Source of the DNA: Amoebophrya sp. A120
Taxonomy: Eukaryota > Protista > Dinoflagellata
DNA: 64,000 nucleotides
Direction of reading: 5' to 3'
NCBI GenBank assembly: GCA_905178155.1
Contig: CAJINV010000005.1
Span: 7,308,989-7,372,988, forward strand
How positions within the stretch are numbered: the stretch's first letter is position 1; the number at the start of each line of letters is the position of its first letter. Shown here one piece after another: positions 5,725-36,300 of this stretch. Under the pieces are notes generated by a model. That model was given only the letters and a program-made list of their open reading frames with translations, ran no database searches and was not told the DNA's origin. Both the position numbers and the translations under genes were made by a program.

Positions 5725-5800
5725 TTTTGATGAAGATGTTTGCTTGAGCTCTCTCGCGACTCTCCCGACCTCGACATGGTCTAACACTTGTGCGCGTTAC

Positions 5801-6073
5801 TGATACAAAATCACCTCGTGCGCACGCACGTCCTACCCAAAACAGCTCCCTACGAGCAATTTTGTGCGCGTCGCGAAAGCGCAGAGCAGCTCGCAGCTGC
5901 CCTCTTCTCGCAGCTCGTAGGTGCGCCTCTAGTGCGCGACCCGCATTTAGAGCGGAATTTGTGTTCGCGCTACGAACGCGCCAGTGCTAGACCCCAGCGC
6001 GAGGTCATCGACCAGGTGCACACCGAGTCGTGTGTCAGCTCGGGCGAACTTAGCTCTTTATCGATTGAGAATA
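5801..6073 (+). repeat. Split direct repeat B, terminal copy
   Basis: Near-identical to 3992-4264; identity stops at ...GAGAATA, where host introner sequence resumes. Confidence 0.9.
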
Positions 6074-6835
6074 TATAAAAAATTAATGAAAATCAAAATC
6101 TGTGACGCTAGGGCATGCATCACAGACATCAGGAGTCATGCAAAATGTGCATGACAAACCTGGCAATCTTCCACCAGACCCAGACATTTTTACATTTGAT
6201 ACGCCTACAGCTCGGGCGAAAACTTTGTCAGGGGCGTGTGCGCTCTGGGAAGGTTGCTCGGCCGCGGTACTAGAAGGACAAGTAGAGCTACAAGCTCTGG
6301 CAGCTTTATCGCGGATTGGAAGCTGCTGGAGGAAGAGTTTGTTCTTCCAGTCGAGGGACAGGAAGCTCCAAGTGGAAGCTCTTTGCGAGTTGAAGGTTTT
6401 GACGTCGATAAGGCTGGTGCAAAAGTTCAGGTGGGTTACGACGCAGCAACGCCTTCTTTTTCCTCGTCCTCCGGAAAGCCAAATAAATGCGGACAACATG
6501 ATTCCCCTGACATTGGCGCTGCCCCTGCCTTGTTCCACCGGTCTCCTGGTGGTGCCGCCGAGATGCGCACCACGAGTCCAGACGAAGAGCTGCGGCGCAT
6601 TTCACAGCGAGGAGCACTAGCTGCTTCCGGAGAGGAACTAGCTGCCTTTGCTGCAACGAAGTCTGGTGCGATGGAAGTGGTNNNNNNNNNNNNNNNNNNN
6701 NNNNNNNNNNNNNNNNNNNNNNNNNNNNNNNNNNNNNNNNNNNNNNNNNNNNNNNNNNNNNNNNNNNNNNNNNNNNNNNNNNNNNNNNNNNNNNNNNNNN
6801 NNNNNNNNNNNNNNNNNNNNNNNNNNNNNNNNNNN

Positions 6836-12829: not shown

Positions 12830-15800
12830 ATGGCCTACTCGCAGACCCTTTCCGGGTCCGACCGGGGGCTGCACATCGTTTTTCTCGGAGACCTATGCAT
12901 TGCAAAAGTATCGTACTCGTATAAATGCATTACAAATTTCCCTGGCATGAGAAATAAAATTTGTAATGCTGATTTGTAATGCATAATTGCAGTACGAGTA
13001 CGATGCTTTTGCACAGGATAAGACCCAGAGATAGGCCAGTCGACACTGCTGAAGTATTTCAGAAAGGAAACTCCCGTATCAAGTGTAAAAATGTCTGGGT
13101 CTGGAAGAATCATGCTGCTTCTGCATGACACAGGAGGTCTGGCATGGAAGCTCTAGCGTCACAGGTTTCGAGAAGCTTCCGCAATGCCGAATCCGCATGA
13201 CAAATCCCCCACTTTGGTGACAGAAAGTGAGCAGCTTTTGCTGCCTATGCATCAGAGATTTTTGTGTGTTCTGAAATGCGCATCACAAGTTACATCCTTC
13301 CAGACCCTGACATTTTTGCGCTTGATATCCCGGCACGGTAAACAACGTCGGAGTGGCGACCCCGTTATGGATTGCAAAAGTTAAAGTATCGTACTGGTAC
13401 TAGTAGTGCTTCGCATTACAAATTCACTCAGCATGACAAATGGAATTGGTCATGCTGTTTTACCTTGGAATGGGGATTTGTAATGCATGACTGCGATTAC
13501 TACGAGAAGTGCGATACTTTTGCACAGGATACCCGTCCAACCGCAACGAGATCTTGGATTTCAGCAAGCACCGCGGCCAGCAGCACGAAGCAGGTATCCT
13601 GTGAAAAAACGTCCTCAGCCTAGGTTTGTCATGCGAATCTGCATGCCTGAAATATTTCTCATGCGCAGTAAAGCCATGCGAAGCATTTTCTAATGCAGGA
13701 GCTGTCTGGGAGCTACTACTTGTAATGCTCGAATCAGGATAAGTGTTAGTGGACTTGAGAACACTCGCACACACTTACACACGTTTGCTCCACTGAGCTC
13801 GTTATCAACAGCAGTTCAATGAATTCTCTCAATTGCAAGCAAGCAAGCAAGTGACGCAAGTCTCTTGCTGCGTTACATCCTGTAGGTTCAATTCATCCAA
13901 ATTCAGCGCATTCATATGGACCGAACCTGGTCAGAGTCAAGTGGCAAAACAGCATGGGAGTCCACTCCTCAACCTGCTCAGATTGGTGCTCGACCCTGGC
14001 GGGAGTCAAGTCCCCCAGGGCGACCATTCTGAACGTCTGGACCGAGCTGAGTCCATTCATTTCACTACGATCCTGATGGCTTTGCCTTCGTAGTATTTGG
14101 GGGATTCGCGGAACATGGTGAAGAGTTTCCTTTAGGATCTAGATAGATTCTGACCATTTCCCTAAGGATCTAGCTAGTTCAGGTCATTCAGAGCTGTCAT
14201 TTCATTGGGAACAGGCGTCATTTGGGGCGATCGTGTTACGTGTGTGCGGGATCGATTTCCATGACCAACACCCCTCCTCAATCGCTGCGGCGGTGGTGCT
14301 AATCTGGATAGCGTCCTACCACACTCCCCTCCTGAGCGCGCTGTGGTGAACTAGCTATCCCCTCTAGAAACCAAAATAAATCGAATAAGTATAGCCTACT
14401 TTAGCCTTGCCCTTGTGATTCCCCTCTATAAACGTGTCTAAATCATCCTCATCGTCAGAGGAGTCACAAATAAAAGACTTAGGGTCGGGGTTATCAATAT
14501 GGTGCAAGAGTAAGCGTCTCTGCGGCACACTACACTCGAGCTTCGTGAGACCGTCTGCCTTCATTAGGTAGGTCGGGCAGAACATGATCTGGCTCGCTGC
14601 GTCTCTCACGCGGAGATATCGCAGTGCGTAGTGCCTCGATTTCGGTTTGTTGTCTGTGCTCTTAGCTGTAGTTATCGCGGACTGGTTGTCGATCCACAAT
14701 ATGGCATCATCCAGGGAGGGAGATAAGCCATTCTGCTTTTCCACCATGACAGTGGGTAGAGGTTTGAAGAACTCTGTAAAGTCATTCTGCTCGCTCAGCA
14801 CAATAGTGTCGGAAGCAGCTATATACTCCGCCTCCGCCGTGGAGTACGCCCTCACGGTCTGCCGGTTGCTACGCCAACAGATCGGGAAGCCGCGGAAGTA
14901 CATAATGCTACCACTAGTGCTTCGCATGGTCTTGCAACAGTTCGCAAAACTAGCATCCGAAAACAGATTCACATCAGGCAAGTCTCTCCCGTCGGGCAGT
15001 AGCTTGCTGTAGATTCTGTTGAATTCTTCCTCAATTTCCGGACTATACGACAGACCCTGCTCCTTCGTTGTCAATAGATACTTCAGAATCTTCTTACAGG
15101 CGTTTACGACAGGCCGAGTCGCCGGCTTGCCCACGTATCTGGCGACAGTGGCAACCGGGACAACAATGTCTACCCTGCAAGTGGTTGCAGCCCACTGCAG
15201 AGAGCCAACGACCTCTCGAAGGGGAAAACCTTCAATAACTTTAGCTCCTTCAACTTCTTTAGCGAGTTCAGACTCATCGAAGTTTGGCGAGTGGACCGGC
15301 TTGCCCGCTTCTGAGACGTGGAATTTCTTACAAATCTTGGATATGTACTCTGTCATCACGATCCTAACGGTTCGTAGATTCCAGTTGTAGTACACTATTG
15401 ACCCTAGGAAGTCAAACTTCTTGGACACAGAGTTAAACTCCGGAACAAGCTCGACGTCGATCATGCGCCCCTTGACGTGGTGCAAGATCTCCGCAAGTTC
15501 TCCAGCCAACTCGGACCCAGTCGGAGGACCTGTGATAAGATTATCGTCGACATACACTGCCAACTTCAGAAACTTCCCAGGGTGTTCCAAGCTCGGTTTC
15601 TTCCACAGACCTGGCGCAGAGGGACAGGGTTCCCAACCTAGCTTGGTCAGTACTTCCTCATACTTCTTATACCAGAGCCTGGGGGCGTCTTTCAAGCCGT
15701 AAAGCGCTTTCTTGAGCTTGACGATCTCCACGCCGTGCTTCTTCGCCCAGATGGGTGGCAAGCGGCAGAAGACGTCGCGATCAAGTAAGGCATTGAGAAA

Positions 15801-18800
15801 CGCACTATCAAGGTCGAACGGGATCACATCATCACCGTCTGCGGCTGCAGCGGCTAGAAGTAACCTGTTAGCGGCATGGGACACAACAGGAGCGAAAGTG
15901 TCCAGCTCGCCCGAACGATCTAGATTACCGAGTACTACTGCTCGCGCTTTCTTCGTACCGTCACGCTTCTCGGTAAGAAGGATAGCAATAGGCAAAACCT
16001 GCTTTGCGGTCGCTAGCTCCTCGTCAGTAGCTGGCTCCCACACTTTATAGGCTTCAAGTCTACAATCTTCCTTGTTGGTTGCTGCGTTCCATTCGACTGA
16101 GTCTTTGCAACGAGCAGGATCCAACTTGGCCGATGTAGTCAAGTAACACTGGACGTCGAGGAATTCCTCACCTTCCTCGCGATCATCCTGTGCTGCTATT
16201 GCTGCGGCAAAGGCACTAGCGTCCTTTCTCAATTCTGCGAGCTCTTTCTTAGTACGTCTCACGCGCTTTGTCTTGTCCTTTCTCCCTTTGGGACGACCAC
16301 GACCTCGCGGCTTGGAGTTGCGGTTGCCAGCCACAATCCTTGCCGGAGACGGGCTCGCCTTTCTTGGACTAGATAAGCTGCTGTGAGTGGGGTGATCGTC
16401 CAGATTCCCCTCCTCAGGTTTAACACCTTCAGGCTCGGGATCTATCTGGCCCGGATCATCTTCCCTATCCAGACTTTCAACTACCAACGTCTCTTCAGGA
16501 CCGTCAGGCTGCCTACCAGTGTGCTCCGAGACATCCACCCCCAGCCGGTGCTCAGCCCTTTTGATCAGACCGACACACGGGAGAGATGGCGCACACGACG
16601 CTCCACTAGGTAGGGCCTCGATTGCGTCACACTCGACATAGATACCTTTGGAGTTAGGAACTAGGTCTTCAATATTCTTCACGAGGTACTCCTCACGGAA
16701 CTTGACGTCGATGGTAGAATACTCCATCCAACGATGTCCCGCGGCGGACCGGCCGTCCGTGACATACGTCCCAACCCGCCAGCCCGAAGACTTAGGACAA
16801 AGGCCGAGAAATACACCACGACGAAATGGCGCGGACAGCTTTGGAGCAACCACTTCTACTCCCCCCTCAGGAGCTTCATGAGCTTCGCCTTTCTTGACTT
16901 GTTCACGAAAATAAACGAGACAACCAAAACGCCTTAGCATCCTTGTGCCAACTTTCGAGCTATTTCTTCCAGTTCTCTCATCCAGAATTTCTGCAGGAGT
17001 CTTTCCGTCGTACTCAGGCATTTTGCTATACTTATGCGGAAGGCGGTCCCAGCATGCTGCAGCGTACTCGACCGAGTAGCACCACAGACGCTTGTCCACG
17101 TTCACCAACATCGCACGCACAGCGCCGAATATGGTCCGCATAAAGCGTTCGCAGGTTCCGTTCTGCTCTGGGTTGTAGGGAACCGTAGGAGCATCACCGA
17201 CCCGCAGCGATTGCATGACCTTGGTCATGGAGTCACTGCCCAGAGCTGGCTCATTGTCCCTACGGACGAACCATGCCACTTTGTCCTCGAGGGTCAAAGC
17301 GTAGTTCTGGCGAATGCCTTTTATTACTTCTTCCAAAACCTCAACGCAGTCACTTTTCAGCTTAAGAGGGACACAGAAACACTTCTTGATGGCATCACAG
17401 ATGACCACAAGCACGCAGGTGCGTGACCGAATCGATACAGGTTTAATACCTACCGCGAAGTCCATCGCGAGTAGTTTCAATGGCTCAGGTTTGTAATTAC
17501 TAGTGTCTCGCTCCTTTGCGTGAGAGCTTCTCGCGCCTTTCGCTTTGTCGCATTCTCAGTCAGAGGGCCCCGGGGCCATTTTGTGGGTTAAAAAATGGCT
17601 ATTTTTTTTCTGATTTCGAAAAAGCGCGGTCGCTATGGGCCGCCTTAGCGAAGGGGCCGGCGCCGTATTCTTCGCCGGCCAGTTGGTGGCCCTTTGGCCC
17701 GCCCGTCGGTCTGGCCTTTTTCTTCGAAGGACCCCCGCCCGCTCTGATTTTTGTTGGTCCGCGCGCGTTGACGGCGCCGCCCTGTTGGTTTGTCTCCCCC
17801 AAGAATAGATTGCAGCTCGTTTGACAGGTCCAGGCGGTATCTTGGGCGCTTTTTTTCTATTGCAGCCGCAATAAGTTCTCAGCCCGGGGCCACAGGCCGG
17901 TTAGCGAAGATTTTTCGAAGGATCAGTGTGTTCAGAAGCTACCTGCAGCGCGCTTCGTAGTGTTTACTCTCATTGTTCCATCGTGTTGCAAATATATTTT
18001 TCCGGGTCCTTTTCCCCTTTTGTTCGTCGTGTGGTCGAAGCCAGTTTTGGTATCAATGTATGCTTTTCGCACACCGCCCCCCATAGAGTCGTTCTTTATC
18101 AGATTATATAATTTGTTTGTGAGTTTTCCATACGACGATGGTGGACGTCGACGGGAACATGCTCACACTTCCGTTCTGCGGTTTTGATCTACCTCTGGAA
18201 AATTACCGGGACATGGTCACACTTCCGCGAATTTCTCGCTGTGCGCGGGGGCGGTATCTCAAGTGGTTTGCGGCTGGTTTGGCAAAGATGGTGGGCAACA
18301 GCAGTGCGGCAGCACTTATCAAAACGAAATCGGAGGCGCAGGTAGGTCTGGAGTTCGAAGCCTGCTGGCGGCGGTTAAAGCTCGCATATCAACAGTGCGA
18401 GCTCGACATGATAAAGTTGCGGCTATCGCGTGCAGCACCGGCGAAGGGAATAGTAGAGCACATTGAGTTCGATGGCACACCGCTCCGCTGCTCGGTGAAA
18501 GGGGTGCACCACACTGGCGATTGTTTCTGCGTTCTCCAGGGCTTCGCGTTTTGGGATGATCGCGACAGCGTTGCTGCGGACAAAGTGCGCGCACAATTCC
18601 GCTTCTCGGAGAGACCGATGGTGCGGCTCTGGCGGTCGCTAGATTTGACGCACATGACCAATGGGCACACCGACGTGCGGACTTATCACGAACTCGATCA
18701 GCTGGAGACGGCCCGAGTATCTTGTGCGAGAGCCCCCGTGTCGGATTTGTCATGCGCAAAAGATGTCACGCAGGTGTCCTCCGAGAGGATATCTGATCAT

Positions 18801-21800
18801 GGTTTTTATTTCGTCCTTCATCATGCGGAGTTCTGTCATGCGTAATTTCCGAGCGTTGTTGTGGATAGTGTGTGTTTTTTCTATATCCAGTTGCCCCCTG
18901 GTCAACAGATGCACAGCATGACAAATCCGACACGGGGTGTTTTTTCGGTGTGATGGGCCGAGTTGATCGAACAAGCGTGTCCTCCTGGCTACGATGTCAA
19001 CTCCAGATTTTTCACTTTGACAAAATACACCGGCGATGGCGCTACTGCCGGCGTCTTGCGGCACTACGTCGGGCAGAGGCATGAACCCGAATTCATCCGG
19101 GCGGGAGGTTCTCTTGCTGGGGAGATGAGCCTGTGGATTTCGGACGAGTGTGCGGGGCACGGATTTCACGGCGGGGTTGGGGACGGTGTGGAAGTCTTTC
19201 TTTCCGATCACGACGCACTCGAGGACTTCAAAAAAGTCTGTCGCAGTTTTCGCAGATCAACCGACCAGCTTCAGAGTGGGGTAGTTCAGTGGTTGGAGGC
19301 GACGTACATGCAGATGCCGCTGTATCGCCTGCAAAACAAGCTGTGCCTAATCTGTCATGCTGTTTTTGGTATTTAGAATTAAAATTGCATGCCTGTCGTA
19401 TGTCCGCCCTAAGTTCCCGGGTATTTTCACCTTTCCTGCACATCCCGTACCACGCTGACTTCGATAGAAGCATTACAGATTAGGCTGCAGTGTTGATTTT
19501 GCATCTCATAACCCTGCACCCGAGGAAAAGGAGAGATACGAGCTTGCAGTGCGAACACTGCTACCGGAGCAGGACGGTCCAGATTCCCTAGCGCTTGCGG
19601 AGGAATTAATCAAGCTGGAACTTCGGTGGGAGTATCGTGTGCAAAAGTATCTTGCTCGTGCAAAGTGCATTCATGCATGACGTAGAGCTGCCATCTTTCT
19701 CTTCATGTGCATGACAGATCTCGCACTACGTATTCTTCAAAAATTTTATCAAGACTTACTCTGCACTTGTGGGGAGCTTTTGCAATGCATATTTCGGGCG
19801 ACTTTTTATTCGGGGCAGCCGCAATGGACCAGACCGATGCCGTGGCGGACCTTGTAGTGCGCCTGAACTTCCCGGAGGTACAGTTCGGGAGATTCGGGAA
19901 CAGCGTAAGCGCAATGCGGCGGTGCGCGGTTTCGTGCCTTGTCGGCCTTCTTCATCTCGGGCGGTTTATCGTTGCCCACTGCCCGCGGGTCGGATTCCTG
20001 AAGCAGGCCCAGGGCCTCAACCTCCCCGGCGACGAATTCATTTCTGCGGCCTGGGGTATTGGCCTCGGGCTTGGCGTCTTTGAAAAGTGCGAGAAGAAGT
20101 TGCTGAAGAGTGACAACATCGCTCGACTACATGAAATCGAGACGGAGTTTCTCGCCGATTTGGAGACCTTCCGTTGCGCAAACTGGTGGTGTATTTTACA
20201 GGTCTCCGGCCTCAAGGAAGACAAGGTTGCCGCGCTCGTCCAAAATATTGGGTACGCGATAGAAGCAGCAGCGGTGAGCTTTTCCGAGTTCCCCTTCCGC
20301 CGGCTGCGGGTGGCGCCGTACAGCGTGCTGCGGCCGCAAGAGAGGTTTAACCTGCGCGCGTTCCTCGAGCGTGTGGCAGCACTTCCGGAGGACGAGTGTG
20401 ATTCGGGGTTTACGTGGAAGCTCAAATCCCTACAGAACACGGCCCCCACCATCCTGGACCAGTGTTCCGGGTCATTAAAGGACGTCTGCGAACTTGTTCT
20501 GACCATGCCGCAGGCGATATATTACTGCGAGAGGACCCACAAGTTCTCGAGTAGGATGAACAAAGGTCGATGCAGTTTCCCCGTTGTCAATGAGTCCGCC
20601 TGGAATGAACGCTTCGCCCAGTGTAGTCATCTCCTCGCCCCAACCGTGCAACAGCTTCCAGCGGGCCCGGCTTCCATCGAGGAGGCCTGGAAAGAGAGCG
20701 GGGCGCACCAGGTCCGTACGTCTTCAATGTTCTGGTCGGAGTTCGCTCTACCGGCCGGCACAACTCTTGAAAACCAGGAAAAACATATGGTGGAAACAAT
20801 GCCGACCTTCCTCTACGCCAAACATGACCCGGACCGGAGGGCGCGACTGGTGCGGAAAGTTGTGGCGCACCGGGAGACCCTGCGCACCGCAGCGGTGGAG
20901 AAAATGGGAAAACTCCTGTCGCGGAAGGAGAAGATACAGAGCGATGAGGTGGACAAGATCACGCAATTTAAGATCACCAACAGCTGCAATCTCACTTCAC
21001 AAATCACGGACAAGCACCTTCTGGACGCGATCAACGGGCTCCGGGGGCAGGGCGTCGACAATCTCGCCAAGAGTGCGTGTCTGCAGCTGCCACTCACCGA
21101 CGAGTTCGAAGCGCGGGTAGTATCTGCTGCGGAAGAACTCCAGTTCTCCCTATCACTAGAGTGAGAATGTCTGATCCTTGGGCCAGAACAGAACTACGCC
21201 GATGCTTAGGTAGAATTTCGCTAGTAGCTTTTCTGCATGACAAACACAAAGACCAACCGCCCCGCTTTCGTAGTTCTGTCTGGGCACCGGGGGCAGGTTT
21301 TTTTGCAAGCCCATATCAGTTGCCCTACTTCCGCCTCCCGGACCTGGATTACCGTGTCACCGAGCTGCTGCGGCGTTTTGCCGGTGGGGAGCAGATACGG
21401 GGGGGACTTCTTGTCGTCCGCCCTGTCAGTCTGGACGAGTGGAATTTGGAAGCGGAGGTGGAAATATATCAGATTGCGCTTGCAGTGAAGCGGCCTTATT
21501 TTCTCGGTGGTGTGATGCTTGAGGCGCAGCAGGGACACCAGGACGACTCCGGCCTGTACTGGAAAACAAACGACTTTGCCGAGTTTACCACCTTTGAAGA
21601 CAGCAGCGAGATCTATTTCGTTCCGCCCGCGCACGTCCAGGCAGTTTCTGTTGCCTGTGTCGGGCTCCCCTTCCCGCTGACTGCACACAGCGTCCCGTTC
21701 TTTCCCGGGGCAGAGCGTCTCGCTGGGGGCCGTGTCAAGAAGAGGGAGCAGGTGGAAAACCGTTCGGGGCACCAGGCAGAGAGGCGGGTGCGGGAGTTGA

Positions 21801-24800
21801 AAGCGAATATACGGAGGATGCGCAATTTAGAGGTAGACCGACCAACAGTCCACGTTTGGGATGATGAAAACTATGTCGAGCAGCGAGATGGAGCACGAGC
21901 GGAACTGCAGCGAATTCGCGACGAGGCGGAGCAGCAGTTCGGCGTAGATGATTCTATTGCGTTCCAGACCGACCCCGTAATGAGGGCATATCCGCGTGGG
22001 GGAGCATGGTGTTTGCAAAATTTGGGTCTTGCTGTGGCGAACTGGAAATTTGAGATAACGTGCAGAGCCACCAGGAAGAAGGTGGAAGAAATAGGCCTTC
22101 CGCACTCCAAAGACGCGAGCGTTGCAGTTTGGGGCGGCGAGGAACGTGCGAGGGCACACGCGGTCTTAATCTGGAAGATCTTGAAGTGGGCCACTGCTGC
22201 GGGGGTGGTTGGTCTGCATGGGCCCACTGACGCCTACTCCGAAATGTGCCGCGAAGAGTATCAGCAGCAGTTTGCTGATGCGCTGCAGCTCGATCGTCAG
22301 TTTTTAAGCACAAAGAACCTCCTCAATAAGTGCAAGAGAAAGGAGTACTTTGATAACCTTGACAAACTAGGATCAGAGGCGGTCTATGTTTTTCCGATTC
22401 AGAATGAATAAAAATCGAGAACGTTTCCTCCACTGAAGATCTCACTTGTCGCATTTTGATCGCTCTGTTTCATTTTTTGTCCCGGTTCGACACAAGTTGT
22501 TTCATATCTATTTGTGGTCCATTTTTTATCTTCCTTCACTTTGAAACCTTTTTTGTCCGTCAATTTTTGGTGGCGTAGCTGCCGATCTCCGCATAGATAA
22601 GTCCAGATCTTCGGCACATAAAGATCTCAAAACTTGATTTGTCATTCAACATCAAAGCCGTTCACACTTTAAATGATGGGGGACCTGTCATCGGCAGCTG
22701 CGGGCGCATCCAACAAGCGCCCAGCAAACAAAAAGCAGGACGTATTATCTGCGTTTGTCAACAACAAGAAAAACAACAACGCGATGAAGAAGGACGAGTC
22801 GAAGCTCCTGCTGCCCGACGAGAACCTCTTCGACATGGACCAGGAGCAATCGGTGAGGAAATAGTCTTGTCCTTCGGTTTTTGCATGACATTTCCACAAA
22901 GCCTTGCGAGCCAACTGACATGAACTAGAAAGCGGGGAAATGTGCGACCAACCCTCGGGGACAACCCTTGGCGCACTGGTCGAAAATCTTCTAAATTTGG
23001 GAAACGTGCAATTTCCTTAGGGATTTCCCTGTACTCAGGATTTTTGTCTTCTTCTGCCGCAAGGCAAAAGACAAAAACCAGAAAAAAGTTAGACCACTAG
23101 TTAGAAGCGCCATTTAGAAACGAATTTAGCACAGGGAAATAGCAAAGGAATTTAGAGTAAGAAAATAGAAGGTGAAAATAGAAGGCAGATTTAGAAAGAA
23201 AAATAGAAGGAAATTTAGAAAGAAAAATAGAAGGGGCAAAAATAGACAAAAAAATAGAAGAAATTTAGAAAGGGGGAGCAGTTGTGATCTGACAGCCAGG
23301 ATTCCGCTGGAAAATTGCTGACTGCGCCCGTGCAAAATCAAGCGCCCACTCAGGCGCGCTTTAAGAGCGCACTTTTGTCCTGCGCTGCCCCGACCGCCCC
23401 CGCCCGGTGCAGGCGGTCCGCAACTGCGCAAACATTTTGTTGCGCCCCCCAGGTTGGGCTCGTGCGCTGCTTGGGGCCGTTGGTTTTGGGAGTTTTTAGT
23501 ATTGGGCGGAGCTGTGGTGGACGTCAGGGCGATGTTCACCATAGCCTCGTGCCTGCATTTCTAGTTCATGTCCAAACGCTCGCAAGGCTCAGCACACACA
23601 GCAGTGAAGCCAGCAGTAAACAACCACGACTCAGGTTTATGAAATATAGCAACGCCCTCTCTTCGTGATCGGATCCAGGGTTTTGAGGAGTCTCCGGGGG
23701 CACTCAACACAACCCACAGCTCTAACATACAGAACAATACAAGGAAAGCAGGCGTAGCGCATCCAATCCCGAAGAGGTTTTTTCCCCTTTGATAGTGGTG
23801 CCATCGATATGGACGACAGTAAGACTGCGAACGACGGCAAGCAGGCCTCCAAAAAGCGGCGGCGGGAGGTGCGTTCCGCCGCGGACGACAAAGTCCTCGA
23901 AGATGCGATTGACACCTGGTTTCTCAGCAAGCGGAAGAACAACGACACTTGGAAATTTGACAGCGCCGTCATGAGGTCGGAGTTTGTTTCTATGGGGTGC
24001 AAAAATGGTCGTGTGCATTGTGGCTCTGCATGTGTGCGAATTTGTCATGCGGGGGATGGGAGGTGGAAGGGACTTATAGGCCCTTTCTGGCTTTGTGATG
24101 CGTATTTTCCCCAAGTTGTCATGCAAGGCCTGAAAATGTCTCTGTCATGCAGGAGTCGCGAAACGAAATTTATATCACACCAGCAGCACCCACAATGTCC
24201 ACGCACTGTTTTTGGGATGATAAGGGCGGACGCGAACAAGATTGCCCCCAAGAAGAAAACAATCAAACAGTACATCATGGACACCTACGTTTCGAAAACG
24301 CGCAAAACCTTCTCCAACTTCACGCTGGTGAAACACCAGGAGGCAACAGTTCTGAAATTGTTGCAGGAAGAGCAGGCGCGATTGGCAAAGCAGCAGGTAG
24401 TAGGTGTGCGCGACCTTATCGCCACTTGTTTCGGGACGGAGGGCCCGCAGCAGGGGAAGGACGCCCTGGCGATTGGTTGGGCGCACGCGGAGCAACTGCG
24501 GTTAATGGCCAGCGTCGCCAACAGCAGCTCCTCGCTTGGAAACAGTTCAAAGGCACCGGCCGTTGCTGCGGTGAAGCAGGAGGAACAGCAGGATGTCGAG
24601 ATGGAAGACGCGGACTTGGACGGGAAGGGTGGCGATGGGAATAGAACTCCTTCCGGGGGAGAAGCAAATAAATCGGGATTGCTCGGCGGAGGGCCCGACG
24701 AAAAGAAATTGCTGGGGGGCGAAGACGCAGATCCGAAGACACCAGCCAGGAACGACAAGAGCGCCGGAAATAACGCCAACCTCATCAACAAAGCAGCATC

Positions 24801-27800
24801 TTCCTTGAAGCAGAAAAATTTGCTGATCGCGTCCCAGGCATCGCAGGACGATGAACCGTTTTCCCCGGGAACTCTGGCCCTGATGCAAGACACGAAGGAC
24901 CTGATCGCCCGTGGGCCGGGCATGGAGACGATCGGGAATGACACTGGTGTTCCGTACGACAAAGTGCGGGATCTCTTCAACGACGCCGAGATGGGCGACT
25001 GGGACGCGGAGACAGGGTGGATTGGCATTATGCGGCGCTGGGATAATCCAGCGATCAACCACGAGCACCTGGAGTGCATGGTGACGATGCATCGGCAGGC
25101 AAAAGGTATTTTTTGGCGATTTTTCCCATGTAGAGCAGCATGACAAATTTAGGATTGTAATCGTCTTTGAGATTTTCTTTCTTTTGCATGCATCTATGGC
25201 AACTGCGTGCAGAACGGCCACACGCATCACAAACCTGATGGTCGTAGTCGGTCTCTTGTTTTCGGAGTTCCCTGTTCTTCGATCTCGATTTCGGTCTACG
25301 GCATTTCCGTTCCGCGCGCTTATATGCATGACAAGGTCGCTTATCGAATTCTGCGTCTCAGAGCCTCAGCGCCTGTCTTAGTTATCAGCATGACAAACTG
25401 GCTTTTTTATGATTTTTCTGAAACTTCAATCAACAGCGGCCGGCGTCAAGACCGAGCCGTACACGACGGCGTTGCCGGCGGCTATTGTGGGGCTCCTGAC
25501 CGACCGGTGGGATCTCGGGACGCACTCGAGGGCCGACTATTTTGAACTGTAAGTAGTTCGTTTTTCCGTCTGCTACCGCACTTCGCAACTTTTTATAATA
25601 TCCGTCTTCAGAATGAACGAAGAAGCATTTCGCGCATGACAAATCCACAATGCGCAAAAATCCACACCTTCAGGTTTGGAAAATATATGAAGCCTGCGTC
25701 GGAGAATACGATCGATTTCTGGCAGACCATGAAAGCCAACTGCGAGGATGGAAAGTTGCGCGTCCCGGAGAGCAAGGTTGTACAGGTGTACAACAAGTGC
25801 AAAATGGTGGAGATTCCGGGGCTGTTTGCCGTCGAGGCGGCGGACCTCAAGGTCAAGGCCGAACACATGCAGCGAAAAACGCAGATCAAGCTGGTACTTA
25901 TTTCCCATGGCCCCACTGTGGTCTATTTCCGTATGTTGTGAGATCTTGCAGTATGGGTAGCAGTAAGTTTGGAGGGCGTGTGCGAAGTCTCTTATGCAAA
26001 TGCACTGAAAAAAAAAAATGCAGGAAGCAAAGCCCATCCTGGACGCCTGGGATTCGAAGACCCCCCTGTCCGCCGTGGAGTTGGATAAACTCAACGCCTC
26101 CCTCGAGGGCATTCTCATCAAGGTCAAGGCCTCAGGGAAAGCAGGGGAGTGGTACAAGGCCTTCCTGTCCATGTTGCACGACAATGGGGTTAAGTCTGCT
26201 GGCCCGTGGCTGCGGGATGTTTGTCTGCATGGGGCGGACTTGCCTGCGATGCACCAGATCTTCGACGGCATCAACGTGTTGGACAGCGTGCGGGCAGCCC
26301 GGGTGGGACTGAAAAAGCAGATTGACAGAGTCTTCAAGCCGACCGACGGACTGTATATACAAATAATTGCGGCGCTTCTTTGTATTCTCTGCCCTGATGT
26401 GCTCCCTCCATTTCTACCAGGCGCATGACAGATCGGCTATTACAGCTGCCGCTGGTGTTTTCGTATTAGTGTCTCGAGCATTTCCGTGCCCGATCAAGCT
26501 CTCTGTGGTGTCAGTCGGTGCGCGGTCATATTTCCCCCAGAGGTGATAGTAGCTGTCTTGTATCTATTACCAAAACCCACTTCCCAGGTTCAAGCTGTAC
26601 CAGGTCGCCCTCGCGTTGAACAAGGAGACTCCGTATTTGACCTACGAATTGGATTTGCTGCGCATGGAGTGCGACAAGCTGAACGACTCGCAGTATGTCA
26701 TGTTGGCTGCAGCGGAAGAAGAGTGGGTGCAGCCCCCGGGTTGGATTTTGGGTGGCCAATGGGACGAAGCGTCGAAACAGATGGAGGAGTACATCACGTA
26801 TCATTTGCAAAATTACCGCGCAGTCGCACAACGGTGTTTCGTGAGAAGTCTATAATGCGAGGAAAAGCAATGTTCCAGATCTCCCCCTCCCCTTCAAAAA
26901 ATTCGCAATTAGATCTAGATTAGCTGCGCGGTGATTTTGCAATTCATATCGCGTGGGCGTTTGCCAAACGGGCCGAGGCGACCGAATTGGGCAAGGGAAA
27001 GGACGAAACCTCTGCGCTCATCCGCTGCTATGGGGAAAACCTGGCAAAGAAGGTCTCCGTCACGCGTAAAAATGTCGACGCGATCGTGGCGAATTTCGTC
27101 ACCACGGTGACTGCGCTGAAGAAGAACAAAACGGCGCCGCGTATTTCGTTTTGATTTGTGCACTTAAAACCATTCCTCCGTAGCAATATGCACATGCAGA
27201 CTCTCATCGTCATCTCTCGATCCATTAACCCCTTCGCGATTTTTCTTTTTGTCCATGCAGGGGCCAGAGCTTGTTTTTTTCTTTATTGTAGAATAAAAAT
27301 ACTCACAGTTCTGGAAAAGGCGGGAAAATGGTACCAGAAGATCAAGTGGGGAGTGGCCTTCTTCACAGAGGATCACGAGAGAAAGCTGCAGCCCGCGATC
27401 ACCGCTCTGCAGCTCGTCGAGGCGGAGGACGCAAAGGCAACGGCGAAAAAAACGGCGTACGACCGCGGCATCATCAAGGCCACGAAGGGGAAGGTCGCGG
27501 CGATGAAAAGGAAAGCGTGAGTCCCAACACGTGATCAACTGGAACTGGTGGCGTTGACACAAATGGAGCTTTAGCATAACAGACTTACCATTCAAATTCT
27601 GAACTTCTCTGGACATTCAGTCACACGATGACGCCCGTGCTGCGATTGACTCGGAACAAATGAAAGCGTTTGCTTCTGCAAAAACTCTGCGTGGTAGCAG
27701 GGGTGAGAATACAGACTATTTAGCGGCGAGCTTTGGATGTGTTGAATCGAATGAACAAGACACACGGAAGAATCGAAAACCGACAGGCCACCTGCGGCAC

Positions 27801-30800
27801 AGTATCACAACGGACACCTTTGACGAATTCAACGAACATCCCGGATTGCACGAATCACGACTCATTTTCCAAAACTCACAAACAAGACTGAACTGATAAA
27901 GAACGACTTGCATTCCAACCGAATTGGTGAAGGACTCACTCTATGCGGATTTGTCTTCCTGTATTCTTTCGTCTTCGTCTTTTTCCGAATTCATTGTGAA
28001 GGAGCCCTTCCGGGGTCATTTTTAGTCCAACCTCTGTGCATCCTCATCATGCAAACCAACGCGGTGTTGGAATAGGAGGGGCGCTCCACAATCACGATCC
28101 GCTGCGGGTGTTGCAGCGAAAAAAACAACACATGACCACCCCCCGTCCGCGGGCGGCGGGCCCTTGCAGTGGTGCCCCCCGCCTGTGGCGCCAAAAGCGG
28201 GGCGCGTGGCCGAGGCTCTAGTGGCCGCGCCAGAGTCGCGCGCCGGGTTCACGCTATCTTGCGCGCAGCCTGGGTAGATTTATACCTGCGACGCTTCTCT
28301 GCCTTCCGGCCGCACATGGCCCGCGGGATACCACGGGGGCAGTGGCGCCCCTACTTCTGTGCCGGCTCCTGCGCCACCAGCCGGCGCCACGGACTCGCTG
28401 GCGGCCGTGCTTTTGAAAAAATCAGAAAAAAATTAGAAAAAAATTAGAAGCACCCACCGCCCCGGGCCCTCTGACTGAGCATTCAGGACGCTGGACACTA
28501 AGACCATCTACATGAAAGTGTCCGAATCTTCTATGTTGTTCTAGACGCGTAAGGTGACAACTAGCAATACTTTCTTCGATTGTAATGCATGCAATGTCTT
28601 CCGCGGTGTCTCTAGTCGTCTGACCCCGGAGGCCCATCACGAAAAGATCACACCCAAGGACTGGGAGGTTCATCCTCTCGTGGTTCTTGATTGGTAGCAT
28701 CTGACCGGATTCCCTGTTGACGAGAGAACCGCCAGAGCTGTTGTAGTTCAGATCCCGCCCACGATCACTGAGATTGTCCTCACCGAGCCACGGAAGAATA
28801 CGATCAATATCTCTTGGTAGATGTTTAAAATAGACGCCATAGGGCAAACCTAGAGCGTTTTCCTTCAATTTTCCGCCAAAACCATCACGAGCCCCGGCCG
28901 TGCCGTTGATGCGACAGACGTTGCTCGAGATGTCAATAAAATCCGATTTGTGTCTAGATAAATACTTGCTTGCACATGAATCGACCAAGCTCGCTTCGTC
29001 CTTGATCTGTGCAGTAAAACAGCTAAAAGAATCTACATCAAATTCCTCTAAATTCTCGAAGTTCAGCATACAACTACCATACTCCGAGATATAAACACCT
29101 CCTTCATCGAGTCAGGCTGGTCCTTGCCAGACCCAACCACCCTGCTTTCCACCGGCTCCCTGCCCTTGATTCTGGTTGTTCATTTGGTTCTGGTTCACCG
29201 GCGGACACCACTGCGGCTGCTGGTTTCCCCAGACACCACCCCACTGACCTTTCCCTTGATTGTTAGGATTCCAGCGGCAACGGTCCGCCTTATGGTTTTC
29301 CTTGCCACAGATCCAGCATTTGGGTTTGGTCACAGTGTTGTAGGGAGTGCTCTGGTTCCGACCAGTCTTACCACCTTTCTGGCCACTTCCACCCTTAGCG
29401 TTAGGCTTCGGGGGCAGGCCATGGGCAGCCAAGACACTCGCTTCGGTCTGCTTGCGTAATTTGGCTTTCATGCGTTTCAAGGCTTTCGCCGAGAACACCT
29501 TGCCAGAAGAAGCATTTTGACCATCATCAGCGGAGTCCGGCTCCTCATCATCATCGTCATTTTTCTGACGCTTATTCCCCTTCTTGTTCTTCTTCGACTT
29601 CTCCTCGACGACCGGGAAGGCCTTGCCGAAGGACGGGTTCTCAATCTTGTAGGACCCCTCCTTGACCAGCTGCGCGAGCTTCTTCTCGAGACGGTTCCCG
29701 ATCTCCTGCAAGGTGATGTGATCGGACTCGTCTACGCAGCGGTCGATGGTCTGGCGGAAGGCCGACGCAAACATCTTGGGCAACTTGTCCAGAATGTTCT
29801 TCACATGCTGATCTTCAATCGGACGCCCGGGCTCCGGGACGTAGACACTCGGCGCCATCTCCATCAAGTCGTGGATCTGGGCCAGGAACGTCGGAGCATC
29901 CTTCGGCGCGTCTCGGTTGTCGAAATGCATGGCGTCGATCGAGGACGTCTTGATGTGCTGCTGGTCACGGGAGGCAACATTGAAGCGACCAACATCACGA
30001 ATACGCATGAACAGTTGCGCAGCGTCGTCGTTGATGTAGTGCTGACTGTTGACCCACGTGGACACGGACCCGGTGCGTGACTTGTAGATGGCATCCTTCA
30101 GGTCGCGCCACTTCTCCCGGATCGCATTATTGGCAGTATTGTTCGCCTGCGGAATCCCCGGAGGGTTACCGGCAAGACGATTATCCCAATACTCCTGGAG
30201 TCCGAGGCGAGAAACCTCGTTCGTGACTCCGCGACGCCAGACGCGCCAGTCCTGCGCGCTGGACAACTTCTCCGTCAATTTCGCCTCTTGGCCCATCTTC
30301 AAACACTTATCTGACTAGAAGAGCCAGCTTGAGTCTCAAGGCGTAACGTAGTGTTAGTGGACTTGAGAACACTCGCACACACTTACACACGTTTGCTCCA
30401 CTGAGCTCGTTATCAGCAGCAGTTCAATGAATTCTCTCAATTGCAAGTAAGCAAGCAAGTGACGCAAGTCTCTTGCTGCGTTACATCCTGTAGGTTCAAT
30501 TCATCCAAATTCATCACATTCATATGGACCAATCGGGTTCAGAGTCAAGTGGCAAAACAGCATGGGAGTCCACTCCTCAACCTGCTCAGATTGGTGCTCG
30601 ACCCTGGCGGGAGTCAAGTCCCCCAGGGTGACCACTCTGAACGTCTGGACCGAGCTGAGTCCACTCATTTCACTACGATCCTGATGGCTTTGCCTTCGTA
30701 GTATTTGGGGGATTCGCGGAACATGGTGAAGAGTTTCCTTTAGGATCTAGATAGATTCTGACCATTTCCCTAAGGATCTAGCTAGTTCAGGTCATTCAGA

Positions 30801-31909
30801 GCTGTCATTTCATTGGGAACAGGCGTCATTTGGGGCGATCGTGTTACGTGTGTGCGGGATCGATTTCCATGGCCAACAATAAGATAGGCAATTTGTGATG
30901 CAAATTCTGCTTCTTCATCACTAGCTAGAGTAAACAGGACTGATACACTACGAGCTGCCCACGGAACTTGTCATGCTTGGGAACCAATAAAAGCTGTTCG
31001 TTTTTACGCAGGATAGCAGGGGGCTCCTCCCCGTCTAGCTCCAAGCCGGCGGATATCATCATACCGGAGCATATGGAAGCGTCAGGATTGAAATCGACAA
31101 AGTTGAAATTATTTGCGATGCACAAAATCAATGCCAGTTGGGCCTCTTCAGTTTCTCAGTGGCGCATGACAAATTTAGAAAACACCAAAATACAGTCTGT
31201 CATGCTGTTTAGGAAAAGTAGACTGCTCCTGTCATGCTACTCTGTACTCTGGCAGCACATCGCCTTCCCCTGAACAGGCTCGCAATCGCTCGCATTTGCT
31301 TGCTCCCCAACACAGGCCATCCGTGCTGTGCATTTTATGCATTACAAATTTTTCGATTTTGTCGATTTCGATCCTGACATTCCCATAGAGCACCAGTCGT
31401 GCGTCCTCGACCAGGTCATCGAAAACGAGCCATTTTATCGAAGAAAAAAGCTACATTGTTAGCTGTAACTTTGTGATGCGCAACATGCAAAGTGATTGCG
31501 GCTGTCATGCTCAGCATGCATGGTAAAGTCGTCCATCCAGGCGCGTTTTCTCGGCATACCATCTGCGCATGACAGGTTTTTGCTCTCATACATGCCAGAC
31601 GGATTTGTCATGCTGCTCCTCCAAGAACGTTACACCTACAATCTTTTTTTCTTGGATATGTTTAGGATACGCTTCACGGACAGTGGGGGACTGTCGGTGT
31701 ACGACAAAGTGCGAAAACCAATCCTACGAACAGCGCATCTCGTCGTGCTGTGCTTCAGCTGCGCGAAGAAACAGTCCCTAGCATCGGTGAAGGAAAAATG
31801 GTTACCACTGGTCAGGTCATTAGCCTTTTTGAAGAAGGACAGGGAAGAGGATTTCGTCTTTCTGAAGCCAGTGATACTACTGGGGCTGCAAACGGATTTA
31901 CGTACTTGA
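12830..31909 (+). CDS. Rho/Miro-like small GTPase-fold protein, 7 or more exons (12830-12893, 13026-13076, 13333-13365, 13537-13594, 31021-31071, 31393-31435, 31664-~31901)
   Basis: Deleting each introner plus one direct repeat gives one open frame: MAYSQ...LHIVFLGDPEIGQSTLLKYF...FRIRFTDSGGLSVYDKVRKPILRTAHLVVLCFSCAKKQSLASVKEKWLPLV...PVILLGLQTDLR. This matches the G1, G3 and G4 layout of Rho-family proteins. Confidence 0.8.
12894..13020. mobile_element. Introner (GCAAAAGTATCG family), non-canonical intron
   Basis: AGACC|TATGCATTGCAAAAGTATCGTACTCGTA...TACGAGTACGATGCTTTTGCACAGGATA|AGACC. Confidence 0.9.
13077..13327. mobile_element. Introner (CCAGACCCAGAC family)
   Basis: TCCCG|TATCAAGTGTAAAAATGTCTGGGTCTGGAAG...CTTCCAGACCCTGACATTTTTGCGCTTGATA|TCCCG. 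Confidence 0.9.
13366..13531. mobile_element. Introner (GCAAAAGTATCG family)
   Basis: CCCGT|TATGGATTGCAAAAG...CTTTTGCACAGGATA|CCCGT. Confidence 0.88.
13744..14270 (-). repeat. 3' LTR of copia copy 1
   Basis: TGTTAGTGG...ATGACCAACA, one of four similar 527-bp copies in the window. Confidence 0.95.
14364..17555 (-). pseudogene. Copia pol 3' part (integrase core, RT, RNase H), cut off from its 5' part
   Basis: Integrase PYNPEQNGTCER; RT FDLDSAFLNA, LKKALYGLKDAPRLW and VYVDD; RNase H FSDASFA and STAEAEY. Almost identical to 38444-41560. Confidence 0.93.
18138..21164 (+). CDS. Putative divergent DDE transposase (CxxH type, hAT/P/MULE-like spacing), split by about 3 degenerate introners (~18718-18957, ~19323-19510, ~19633-19791)
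   Basis: Ordered motifs: HIEFDGTP (D, ~18471), YTGDGA (D, ~19035), DECAGHGFH (CxxH, ~19149), long helical insert, MPQAIYYCERTH (E, ~20529). Motif reading by eye only. Confidence 0.55.
21168..22411 (+). CDS. Orphan ORF 2 of the 10.9-kb element
   Basis: About 414-codon open frame (MSDPWARTELRR...) starting 3 nt after the stop of the transposase candidate; no recognised domain. Confidence 0.6.
22676..27520 (+). CDS. Orphan multi-exon gene(s) 3 of the 10.9-kb element
   Basis: Series of GC-rich, coding-like + strand blocks (22676-22852, 23809-23980, 24223-25105, 25675-25893, 26020-26352, 26588-26798, 27028-27140, 27309-27520; edges approximate) separated by AT-richer GCATGACAAA-containing spacers. 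Basic NLS-like KKRRR. Confidence 0.55.
23100..23275 (+). repeat. Purine-rich degenerate tandem repeat (AAAATAGAAG / ATTTAGAAAG units)
   Basis: Visible repeated units; similar AAAAATTAGAAAA units occur at 28420-28450. Confidence 0.7.
28485..30296 (-). CDS. Copia copy 1 gag (to TGA at 29112) and in-frame 5' pol (protease, integrase Zn-finger start)
   Basis: Gag zinc knuckle CWICGKENHKADRC; protease-like LVDSCASKY; HRRFGH just before the insertion point. Confidence 0.9.
30352..30878 (-). repeat. 5' LTR of copia copy 1
   Basis: 527 bp, TG...CA, followed by TSD ATAAG. Confidence 0.95.
31072..31387. mobile_element. Introner (TATGGAAGCGTCAGG family)
   Basis: GAGCA|TATGGAAGCGTCAGGATTGAAATCGACAAA...TTTGTCGATTTCGATCCTGACATTCCCATA|GAGCA. 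Confidence 0.9.
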
Positions 31910-33329
31910 TATTGATGGTTGATTTTTTTCTCGTAGTTGCTGCAAATACAAGCGCACGTCAATGAGATGCAAATAACAACTTCAACCGTGCATAGAATTG
32001 GAAATGGATATCTTCATGTCTGAGCGTGACAGATGAATGAATTTCTGTTCCCGCAGCTTCGAGGGAACCAATGGCAGGATCATGTTGTCATGACGGGCCA
32101 GGTATCTTGTAGAGTTGTACTCCGAGAAGTAGTAGAACTTGCACAACATCACACCAAACATACAATTTCAGGCGCATCTTCCTCCGTCGCGGTAACAGAA
32201 GGGGAGGCTTCCAAATTCGCAAACTATCCTGTTGCACACTTTGGATCAACGTCCCTGAGGTCTGGTGGAATTGCATCAGTGCTAGATGTATGATTCGGAA
32301 GCATGTCATGATAGCTCGTGATATGATGTTGGCAAAAACCACGTGCGTTAAACATTGCGGTCGTCTAGCATGTCAAAAGAAAAAAGGAAAACCGTTTGCA
32401 GTAGAGGATATTAGAAATTCGATCCGACACCGACTGTAAAAGAACAAGTTGACCGGAAGATCTAAGTCAAGACCGCTGGTCCCGCCATTTGTTTGCAATC
32501 GATAAACCCGAGGCGGAAGCCATCAGTTACCTGGAGTGCTCCCTCGCAGCGGATCTTATCCCATCAAAATGAATTTCTTCAACAGCCACCTCCATCAAGT
32601 TCAAAGCAGAAGAGTTGTAGAACCAGAACCCCTCCGTTTTGCGTACTGTGGTCATGATGGCCATACCTAGAGATAAAAAAAAAGCTGCAAAAGGTGGATT
32701 TATCCCGCCGTCCAGGAGTGCATGCTGCACACAAAGTTGAGTGGCGCTATCAGAATCTTGTGGACACGTGAATCCATTTCTAGTATTTGTGCCTTGATGG
32801 ACGGTGGAATGTTTTTTTCCAACCGCGATAAGCTCGGACGAAGCGCTAGACGCCCTGAGGACGAAAATCTTGAGCACGGCGAAAGAGTATATTAGTGCCT
32901 TCGCTTTATTTTGTTTCAACTTCTTGTTTTGTTAGTTCTAGTTGTGCCGGCCGCGGAGGCTGCGTCTGCTTGTTCCTGTTGGTCTTTTCATGCACGAGAA
33001 AATGAAAAACAAGATTGAAAATGAATATTGAAAATCAGGTCCTACCTATTCCGATGGCAGCAGAAGAGAATAAAGCGGTCCCTGCGGGGGGAATCCGACC
33101 AAGCGGTGGACTATCCAGGGAAAAAACAGTGCTAGAAGTTGAAGTTGTGTGAATGGTTCTCTATTACAGTGCATGTAAGACTACAGTGACACTCACTCTT
33201 ATCAGATGGCCGCACACTAGCGCTCATGGGAAATAAAATTTCAGTTTCACGCAGTATCACGGAAAGCGAAAAACAAGTTTTTTTTTGTCATGCTGCAGAC
33301 CGAATTTGTAAATGCAAGTCAAAGTAAAC

Positions 33330-36300
33330 AGCTTTTTTTTTCTGGATATGAACATGGGGGCTGCCGACGTGGACAAGTATGTGGCTGAAGCCTTTATGAA
33401 GTGCAAAAGCATGATCGTACTACGTATAAATTGCATTAGCATGACAGACGAGATTTGTAATGCTGTTTTAGCTAATGCTAGGGAAGGCGGAGGCGATTTG
33501 TCATGCATGTCTGCAATTGGTACGACTGCGATCCTTTTACAGTGCATAGCCTTAACGGTCGAGCAAGACACCGACCCCCTCGCGAAAGAGCAGATCACGC
33601 AAAACCTATCCTGCCTCGGAGTCACCCCCTACATGAGCCATGCGTACTTTAATTCTTTAATATCCACCTACCGAGTACTAGAACACGATGAATGAGTGTG
33701 CTGCATGCTTTTGCAGCACTGCTGCGTGTGATGGTGCTGTTCATTTTCATGAATCCGGGCTGTAGATAAAGGAGTTGTAGCAGGCACGTTAATGTTTTGA
33801 ATATGAACAGGAAAACAAAAAATAAAAAGCTGTGATGCAAAAACACTGCCACGAATCTCAGATACCTGCAGTGTGACCTTCCGGACCTCGGGCTAACGAG
33901 CTGCGATGCCTTACGAGGATTTCCGAACCTGCGTATCCTGTGTGAAAGCGCTTTCAAATCCATTTTTACCTGGAAGATAGTAGTCCTGCTCCTGCTACTC
34001 GACGCATTCCAGCAGATCCGCCGAAAATTGTCATGCGTGGCACGACCGCAGGCTCCTCTCAACATGATGACGATCTTCTGGTGTGTATTAAAAGCGTTTT
34101 TGCACAGGATACGGTAGTATCTGGACATATCAAACAACCAGCTGCGATCGCTGGAGCCGTTAGGTATCGATTCGTAATATTCAAGTGGAAGTAGTTTCAT
34201 GATCGTCCTCGATCAGTACGTAAAATGAGAAATAGCAGTGACGGATGACTACGGGTACCGCGTCAGTGCATGACCGATCGAAGCCACATTATATCAGTTT
34301 CTTCGTTCGGACAGATCGTGTGCATAAAATTGGAACTACAAAGACCCTCTGACGAATGATGAAAACGAAAAACCAGCAGCAAAGATGACAAGTAACAAGC
34401 TGCTGGTCTAGAAGGCTGGTTAAAATTCACAGTCGTCAACAAACAAGTATACATCGATTCAAATTCAGGTGAGCTCCCATTCCTGCTCCGGCTCAACGCA
34501 TCCAGAAACCAGATGGTCCGCACCCAATCTACCAAAGTGTGCACAACATGCACTCATACTCAGCCTCACCCTCGTCTTGAGACGAGTGTGTCGCGTCTAC
34601 AGCAAGTATAAGCACAAGGCGCCGGTAGTACCAGTAGCACAGCCTTTATTGCATCGACTACAATGATCTGCACTCTACACATGAGTTGATGTTGATGTTG
34701 TCGTGAAACAAGTGCAAACAGACCAGGAGGGGGTTTATTGGCACATTAGTGCATGCCAGGCGAAGGGCACCAGCAGGATGAGTTGTTGTGCAGTCTCATA
34801 CAAGCCTTCGGACCGCCACGACATCTGGAGTCCGTATGCAGTGTGATGCAGCAACAGAGTTACCTGATTACGGTGTCTTCTTGGTAAGTACAGTTTCTGG
34901 TGCAACAATAGTAGCGGCATCTCCTTCGTACCAAGATAACGACAAGTAGACTTTCATGATGCGCACTACTCAACAGAGAAGATGGTGTTGTCGCGCATAA
35001 AGGTGTAAATTTTTTTCTTCTACTCCGTCCGGCCTACCATTGGTACTGCAACTGCTACTGCTGTAAAAGCACGTAAGTAATATGGAAGACTTCGGCACGT
35101 AATCATTGGAAAATTTTGTTTCTCCGCATACTCCATTGACCTCTCGTACAACCTAATCTCCGAGCTGGGCGACTGGCGCACGCACAAGATGTACCCTATG
35201 TGAAAACGTCCGTCCCCACTCCAGACGAGTTGTAGTGCAAATCTGCATGCCTATCTAAAAATATTAATATTTCTCATGCGCACCCGCTTGAGAGGCCCGT
35301 TTGCTAGTGCTATCTTGGAGTAGTTTGTCATGCTAGACGAGTCAGGAAGATATGTTGATCGATTTGTGATGCGTAATTCACTGCTAGTCGAAAAAAAAAA
35401 AATAAAAACGACTACACCACAATCCCGAACCTGTCATGCGCATGAGGATGAGCCAAAACTTGCTGCCGAATCTGTAGAGAAACCCCTCAGAAATTTGACT
35501 CTGGGCGGTTGGAGGGGACGTACTAGTTTTTCCACCCGATAAGAAGCTCCGGGAGTTGAACCTGCGCGGGAATTTCATTTCCGAAATCGACGGTATCGCG
35601 CTGCTATGCATTGCAAAAGTATCGTGCTCGTATAAATGCATTACAAATTGACTTAACATTACAAATTAAATTTGTAATGCGGATTTTCCTTAAGCAGAAG
35701 ATTTGTAATGCATAAACGCAATTACAATTTAGTGCAAGTGCGATACTTTTGCAATGCATAGCTGCGAAAAAACTCCAGGCTCAAAATGCTGGATTTGAGC
35801 GAGAACCACATTTTCAAGATCCAGAACCTATCACGCAGAAAAAAGCAGGCAGATCGCATTTGTAATGCAAAAATAAATACACAAAAAAATCTGTGCTGCA
35901 TAGCTCAAGCAGCATGCTGCGGGACCGCCCATGACAGATTTTTTTGTGTGTTTGTTCTTGCACTACAAGTGTTGGTCATGGAAATCGATCCCGCACACAC
36001 GTAACACGATCGCCCCAAATGACGCCTGTTCCCAATGAAATGACAGTTCTGAATGACCTGAACTAGCTAGATCCTTAGGGAAATGGTCAGAATCTATCTA
36101 GATCCTAAAGGAAACTCTTCACCATGTTCCGCGAATCCCCCAAATACTACGAAGGCAAAGCCATCAGGATCGTAGTGAAATGAATGGACTCAGCTCGGTC
36201 CAGACGTTCAGAATGGTCGCCCTGGGGGACTTGACTCCCGCCAGGGTCGAGCACCAATCTGAGCAGGTTGAGGAGTGGACTCCCATGCTGTTTTGCCACT

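Follow-up and report, generated by a model that had tools for sequence, protein, structure and literature searches.

A TIR-bounded DNA insertion of 10.9 kb in Amoebophrya sp. A120 and its candidate hAT-like DDE transposase

Analysis of a 64,000-nucleotide stretch of contig CAJINV010000005.1 of Amoebophrya sp. A120 (assembly GCA_905178155.1; hereafter the window) led to a DNA insertion of 10,923 bp at 17556..28478, which is bounded by terminal inverted repeats (TIRs) and flanked by a 6-bp target-site duplication (TSD). It is probably an autonomous cut-and-paste transposon, in which the first of two genes, gene A, likely encodes a highly divergent hAT-like transposase with a catalytic Asp-Asp-Glu (DDE) triad. 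The element likely represents a new transposon family.

Element ends, empty site and copies of the termini

The element interrupts a copia long terminal repeat (LTR) retrotransposon on the minus strand (13744..30878; RVT_2, E-value = 2.6e-28), and a sister copia at 35970-42180 is 98.1% identical to the interrupted one over 6211 columns. The TSD GCATTC is located at 17550..17555 and 28479..28484 (both on the plus strand), and the sister copia has one GCATTC at the equivalent position, which represents the empty site. The empty-site sequence at 17555 is also found on a deep DNA contig (depth 360.9), and thus the TSD and the exact ends that the initial annotation of the window had read from the sister copia are borne out. 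The left TIR (17556..17640, plus strand) and the right TIR with its subterminal repeats (28394..28478, minus strand) share 15 perfect bp, or about 21 bp allowing one indel, as had been reported. Their true extent is longer, as positions 22-85 reach an alignment score of 44, attained by none of 1000 shuffles, and the TIRs therefore continue imperfectly to about 80 bp. The termini are TCAG..CTGA and the first letters TCAGT. Searching the window with the TIR 12-mer (two mismatches) gave nine matches, a number also reached in 10 of 100 shuffles.

The ends also recur in the contigs of a DNA run (X1, possibly from the same sample as the assembly), where 104 records matched at 80% likeness, eight of them with details. 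One is an unbranched contig of 10,944 nt, identical to 17526-28469 (0 differences) at a depth of 44.4; this resembles the other unique contigs (38-47) and points to one full copy of the element. Its left junction includes 30 flank nt, one under the bridging threshold. Among the records listed, record 3 matches from exactly 17556 to 17678 with 15 differences and has a different flank and interior, record 4 runs from 28336 to exactly 28478 with 20 differences, and record 5 matches at 28360-28469. At least three records part from the element exactly behind 28478 into mixed flanks. Since these end-only contigs share the limits 17556 and 28478, the termini recur elsewhere and stop at the same base. 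The further copies that had been suggested as a check are thus represented by ends with other flanks, but the depth speaks against a full-length second copy, and neither gene has a second copy at 80% likeness in this run, as the flat depth indicates. The 6-bp TSD itself was read at one site, this insertion. In metagenome contigs (30 of 64 parts scanned) the TIR 15-mer was found at 119 loci, which we attribute to chance, because no locus encodes gene A or the second gene (gene B) or shows the 15-mer in both orientations.

Each copia is flanked by a 5-bp TSD of its own, ATAAG on both sides of the interrupted copy and ACAAG around the sister. Across the empty site, the interrupted copy keeps an open pol frame. 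The insertion is therefore recent and the locus does not consist of two joined copias, which, together with the empty site, supports the earlier claim of recent movement. We read the insertion site as falling in the integrase part of copia pol, within its N-terminal His/Cys region. It is highly improbable that a single-copy region was artificially joined into a collapsed copia repeat during assembly. The odd mosaic of the copias and the contigs that bridge the junctions incompletely could be taken that way, but such an artefact would have to create, exactly at the ends, a perfect TIR and a TSD, as well as a 5-bp TSD pair around the whole copia, and it is at odds with the unbranched contig from 17526 to 28469 and with independent ends stopping at the same base. 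Concerning the mosaic, the two copias lie head-to-head; no difference separates them over about 3000-5500 of the length, whereas the first 3000 differ by about 4%, and the 3' LTR of one differs at 2 positions from the 5' LTR of the other vs. 12 from its own partner. Gene conversion, recombination and assembly collapse are the alternative explanations. LTR divergence was dropped as an insertion clock, since the two copias look mosaic.

Gene A, a candidate transposase

With its start 580 bp away from the left TIR, gene A is predicted to comprise five exons on the plus strand, with boundaries drawn from homologs. Exon 1 (18138..18716) carries D112 at 18471-18473 and exon 2 (18960..19321) carries D219 (19035) and C257xxH260 (19149-19160). 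Exon 3 (19515..19631) was placed by tblastn of homolog P0004 (E-value = 0.004) and by the introner-type motif in its flanking introns. Exon 4 (19796..21149) encodes a putative helical insertion region, R385 and E598 (20529), and exon 5 (21320..22411), "gene 2" of the initial annotation, encodes a conserved C-terminal extension. The five-exon frame is open, with a predicted product of 1167 aa that aligns with homolog P0002 at 39% over 1130 columns, with P0003 at 38% and with P0005 at 27%. In the exon 5 region, P0001, P0002 and P0003 align at 34-37% identity and P0005 at 23%. As P0001, P0002, P0003 and P0005 each align in order across both open reading frames (ORFs), genes 1 and 2 of the initial annotation are one gene; its "gene 3" pieces belong to the nine-exon gene B, so that two genes replace the three or more originally counted.

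The introner inverted repeat of strain A120 is described as TAT followed by seven variable bases and then three or more A (PMC7789003). The exact motif TAT-N7-AAA...TTT-N7-ATA is found in the same register in two of the four predicted gene A introns and in two of the eight RNA-verified gene B introns, which supports the splice model, would fit an Amoebophrya-type host and shows that the element has been resident long enough to gather host introners. Intron 3 of gene A (19632-19795) belongs to a high-copy host introner family (D7; bin DNA depth 604 vs. 44), with repeats at 12892, 35603, 44215, 45540, 49620, 57171, 58885 and 60973.

Homologs of gene A are few. A phmmer search with exon 4 among 1,835,955,588 representatives returned six hits: three from Amoebophrya AT5.2, two from Amoebophrya A25 (CAD7970938.1 and CAD7970919.1, both labelled "unnamed protein product") and one 1176-aa MMETSP/JGI transcript protein. 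The syndinian relatives have several divergent paralogs per proteome. Word-based protein searches with exon 4 found nothing among proteins of 270-861 aa or 834-2380 aa, and a profile search among 7995 candidates recovered four of its five seeds and nothing further. Scans for related loci with the gene A alignment confirmed none of their pattern matches, of which 274 were among metagenome contigs, 68 among viral contigs and 150 among prokaryote genomes. Judging from these comparisons, the protein family is more isolated than the initial annotation could know.

The motifs D, D, CxxH and E, from which a DDE enzyme had been proposed, are present in gene A, and D112, D219, C257, H260 and E598 are invariant in all homolog rows covering them (four to six of six). 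Together with R385, they are kept across homologs of 25-61% identity. R385, which we infer to correspond to Hermes R318, is invariant as well. The model of gene A has a weak structural match to Hermes (PDB 4D1Q) 253-609, covering the span from CxxH to E, and Hermes is the only transposase among the structure rows listed. Atlas leads to PF05699 clusters, at only 0.79-0.86, and its named leads are mostly hAT families.

Several results weigh against a hAT-like enzyme. The residue after R385 is F in five of six rows and M in one, thus the hAT R-W pair is absent. Pfam gave no hit in any of five gene A homologs, PF05699 (hATC) and MULE included, and gene A is unrecognised by Pfam, NCBIfam and PDB sequence searches. 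A BED zinc finger was not found, either as invariant Cys/His before H108 (four rows) or as a Pfam hit; the only invariant Cys/His residues are H108, C129, H234, C257, H260, H263 and C1114. The fold check that had been proposed for gene 1 gave the Hermes match from CxxH to E, but did not demonstrate an RNase H fold, as model residues 36-232 have a predicted local distance difference test (pLDDT) score <50, and Foldseek against PDB and a wider structure search returned nothing usable, although no fold is excluded thereby. A viral structure library gave one row (E-value = 1.0e-3), not usable at a root-mean-square deviation of 48. A single-sequence fold of exon 4 (pLDDT 37) was not used.

The long homologs conserve the C-terminal ~550 aa, which include a beta-rich domain modelled with confidence around P0002 775-890 and an alpha/beta piece around 1030-1120. 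This extension is likely a DNA-binding or oligomerisation module. At ~21990-22200 (residues ~1030-1095) a conserved G-x-x-W ... V-W-G-G-E-E-x-A stretch has what we take to be a resemblance to an AP2-like DNA-binding domain, with no Pfam hit. By analogy with Hermes, Kat1 and Muta1, the gene A product would recognise the ~80-bp imperfect TIRs and the subterminal repeats, probably through the C-terminal extension, which is proposed for this role because the protein is without a BED finger. D112, D219 and E598 would cut both ends in a double-strand excision, CxxH would aid hairpin formation on the flanking DNA, and the 3'-OH ends would be joined to the two target strands at a stagger of 6 bp, the repair of which would produce the TSD.

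Alternatively, the mobilising enzyme may not be gene A. The element could then be a non-autonomous carrier that holds two host genes and depends on a transposase acting in trans, or a pair of short TIR elements could have moved the DNA that separates them. Such an origin could account for other family ends enclosing unrelated interiors, for a gene A fold that models and structure searches did not demonstrate and for RNA-derived contigs that cover gene B and not gene A. The raw RNA runs X8-X10 gave 0 reads on 16500-29500, flanks included. The missing RNA cover on gene A is not evidence of silence. We consider a carrier improbable given the invariant D-D-CxxH-R-E in correct order, the Hermes match over the CxxH-to-E span, the position of gene A next to the left TIR, its several paralogs per proteome and the lack of further copies of gene A or gene B at 80% likeness in the DNA run. 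A transposase encoded by gene A remains our preferred explanation.

Gene B and other features of the window

Gene B is a gene of nine exons on the plus strand with an open frame of 840 aa, from the ATG at 22673 to the stop at 27520 (exons 22673-22854, 23799-23989, 24227-25105, 25437-25548, 25674-25893, 26024-26352, 26588-26797, 26953-27140 and 27309-27520). Its eight joints, between 22854 and 27309, come from contig sets X3-X6 of one sample, which are guessed to be RNA, though the contigs do skip introns; they extend to about 27956. Three introns are non-canonical and the frame is open with the joints as in the contigs. Specifically, the joints 22854/23799 and 23989/24227 give GA..GG and CT..GG introns, and a nearby GT..AG at the first would break the frame. 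An alternative 5' piece at 23608-23636 is spliced to 23799 in X4, which suggests a second transcription start inside intron 1. The same intron harbors a nested stretch of ~690 bp (22900..23589) bounded by inverted repeats (arms 22900-22931 and 23558-23589; 32 nt, 84%), which resembles a miniature inverted-repeat transposable element; A/G-rich repeats within it recur elsewhere in the DNA run, and over 39 nt (23073-23112) it is similar to the right subterminal repeat (score 44, where 63 background windows reached at most 34).

The N-terminus of the protein is basic, with stretches that we presume to be similar to nuclear localization signals; the middle is of low complexity and the C-terminal half is more hydrophobic. 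Its single exons and ORFs found nothing credible in Pfam, NCBIfam (five exons; one weak row far under the cut-off), PDB (one exon; best E-value 0.65) or viral contigs (one exon; 0 of 18), a weak test as large protein collections were not searched. The flat DNA depth speaks against gene B having been duplicated recently from a host gene. Most likely, though with only about even confidence, it encodes a long-resident accessory or passenger nuclear protein moving with the element, and an accessory factor and an old passenger are about equally plausible.

Outside the element, 3712-12115 contains long ORFs (670, 589 and 1119 aa) from near-identical repeats of 1.8-2.6 kb around an assembly gap (6682-6835), with no Pfam match at E-value ≤ 0.01. 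Rfam gave no match over 13000-33000.

Relation to known transposons and significance

Large size, several genes or a 6-bp TSD are found in various groups of transposons. MuDR comprises large two-gene elements, MULE TSDs are 8-11 bp long, the IS3EU transposase is integrase-like (none such was seen here) and Polinton/Maverick elements combine a 6-bp TSD with large size. The absence of the Polinton pPolB and rve integrase, as first noted, held up, since these, ATPase and capsid families were missing from all nine internal ORFs scanned; the interior is occupied by genes A and B.

With hATs the element shares short TIRs with subterminal repeats and the succession of D, D, CxxH, R, a long, putatively helical insertion and E, a likeness at the motif level with a presumed catalytic role. 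It departs from them in several respects, which also count against the hAT-like assignment: its length of 10.9 kb vs. typically 2.5-5 kb (PMC3942097), a 6-bp TSD that fails the canonical 8 and fits only the hAT6 exception (PMC12730594), a TCAGT start outside the [T/C]A[A/G]NG consensus (PMC6027215), and a protein of 1167 aa with a ~550-aa conserved extension and no BED finger, with F/M in place of Hermes W319 and no detectable sequence similarity. The initial contrast with one-gene hATs of 8-bp TSD is weakened by hAT6, which has 6-bp TSDs and is placed among animal Blackjack-type hATs, and by hAT7, which carries a second gene (TET/JBP) (PMC12730594).

Dada also has a 6-7-bp TSD, a C/DxxH DDE transposase, a length of up to 10,979 bp and a representative in the alveolate Perkinsus, but it is described as lacking TIRs, targets snRNA/tRNA genes and bears N-terminal CCCC and C-terminal CCHC zinc fingers (PMC3706591), whereas the element has TIRs, sits in copia pol and encodes no such invariant sets in gene A. 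The (C/D)xxH motif and flank-hairpin chemistry are common to hAT and MULE, the latter exemplified by Muta1, yet MULEs have long TSDs and a conserved W (PMC5499845), in contrast to 6 bp, F/M and no MULE Pfam hit here. IS3EU has 6-bp TSDs, TIRs over 30 bp and several genes, with termini TAYGG..CCRTA (PMC12730594) unlike TCAG..CTGA. Since hAT6, IS3EU, Dada and hAT7 are already described, a 6-bp TSD and multiple genes alone are not new. This part of the original new-family claim is weakened, and the support for the claim comes from the TIR element, the DDE/CxxH candidate that escapes Pfam, NCBIfam and PDB sequence searches and its syndinian homologs.

Gene A may also belong to a C/DxxH-group transposon outside hAT, with the same chemistry and a different classification, forming a separate lineage of superfamily rank alongside hAT, MULE, P, Kolobok and Dada. 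The C/DxxH motif, common to hAT, Kolobok, P, MuDR, IS256 and Dada (PMC3706591), does not by itself choose hAT. The element does not show the hAT hallmarks of an 8-bp TSD, a [T/C]A[A/G]NG terminus, a BED finger, the W or Pfam hAT domains, the D1-D2 spacing is 107 vs. 68 in Hermes, and there are no relatives beyond six hits among 1.84 billion representatives. We nevertheless find this placement rather doubtful: Hermes and mostly hAT leads were what the structure rows listed and Atlas returned, fast protein evolution in Amoebophrya (PMC7789003) can erase similarity, and TSD length is variable within hAT, as hAT5, hAT6 and hAT7 illustrate (PMC12730594). A divergent hAT-like transposase thus stays the favored assignment. 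Only tentatively could we describe a superfamily-level, so far syndinian-restricted C/DxxH DDE lineage with a 6-bp TSD, TCAG termini, a transposase of 1.1-1.2 kaa, a new C-terminal DNA-binding module replacing the BED finger and a dedicated 840-aa partner protein with expression of its own.

No description of this family, and none joining Syndiniales with a hAT transposase, was found in the literature searched (Repbase and subscription journals were outside the search). By Repbase domains, two putative transposases were reported in Amoebophrya A25 and none in A120, and a general transposase-driven spread of introners was ruled out on that basis (PMC7789003). A120 introners have also been attributed to diverse TIR transposons, with a different, copia-like TIR family described (PMC12130899). 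We found no link between the element and introner mobility, as its TIR and 6-bp TSD are unlike the introner inverted repeat (TAT-N7-AAA) and 3-5-nt direct repeats (PMC7789003). However, the protein of an intact, recently moved element escapes Pfam, NCBIfam, PDB and word-based searches, and a negative homology screen therefore carries little weight in Amoebophrya genomes. Relatives of gene A stand unannotated in two Amoebophrya strains, and the family can serve as a seed for finding hidden syndinian DNA transposons. For gene transfer in this group, where genetic tools are few, gene A may also offer a native enzyme as a candidate. If the superfamily-level placement were true, intact mobile transposases would have been missed by homology screens, which would reopen the question of which enzymes move TIR-type introners.

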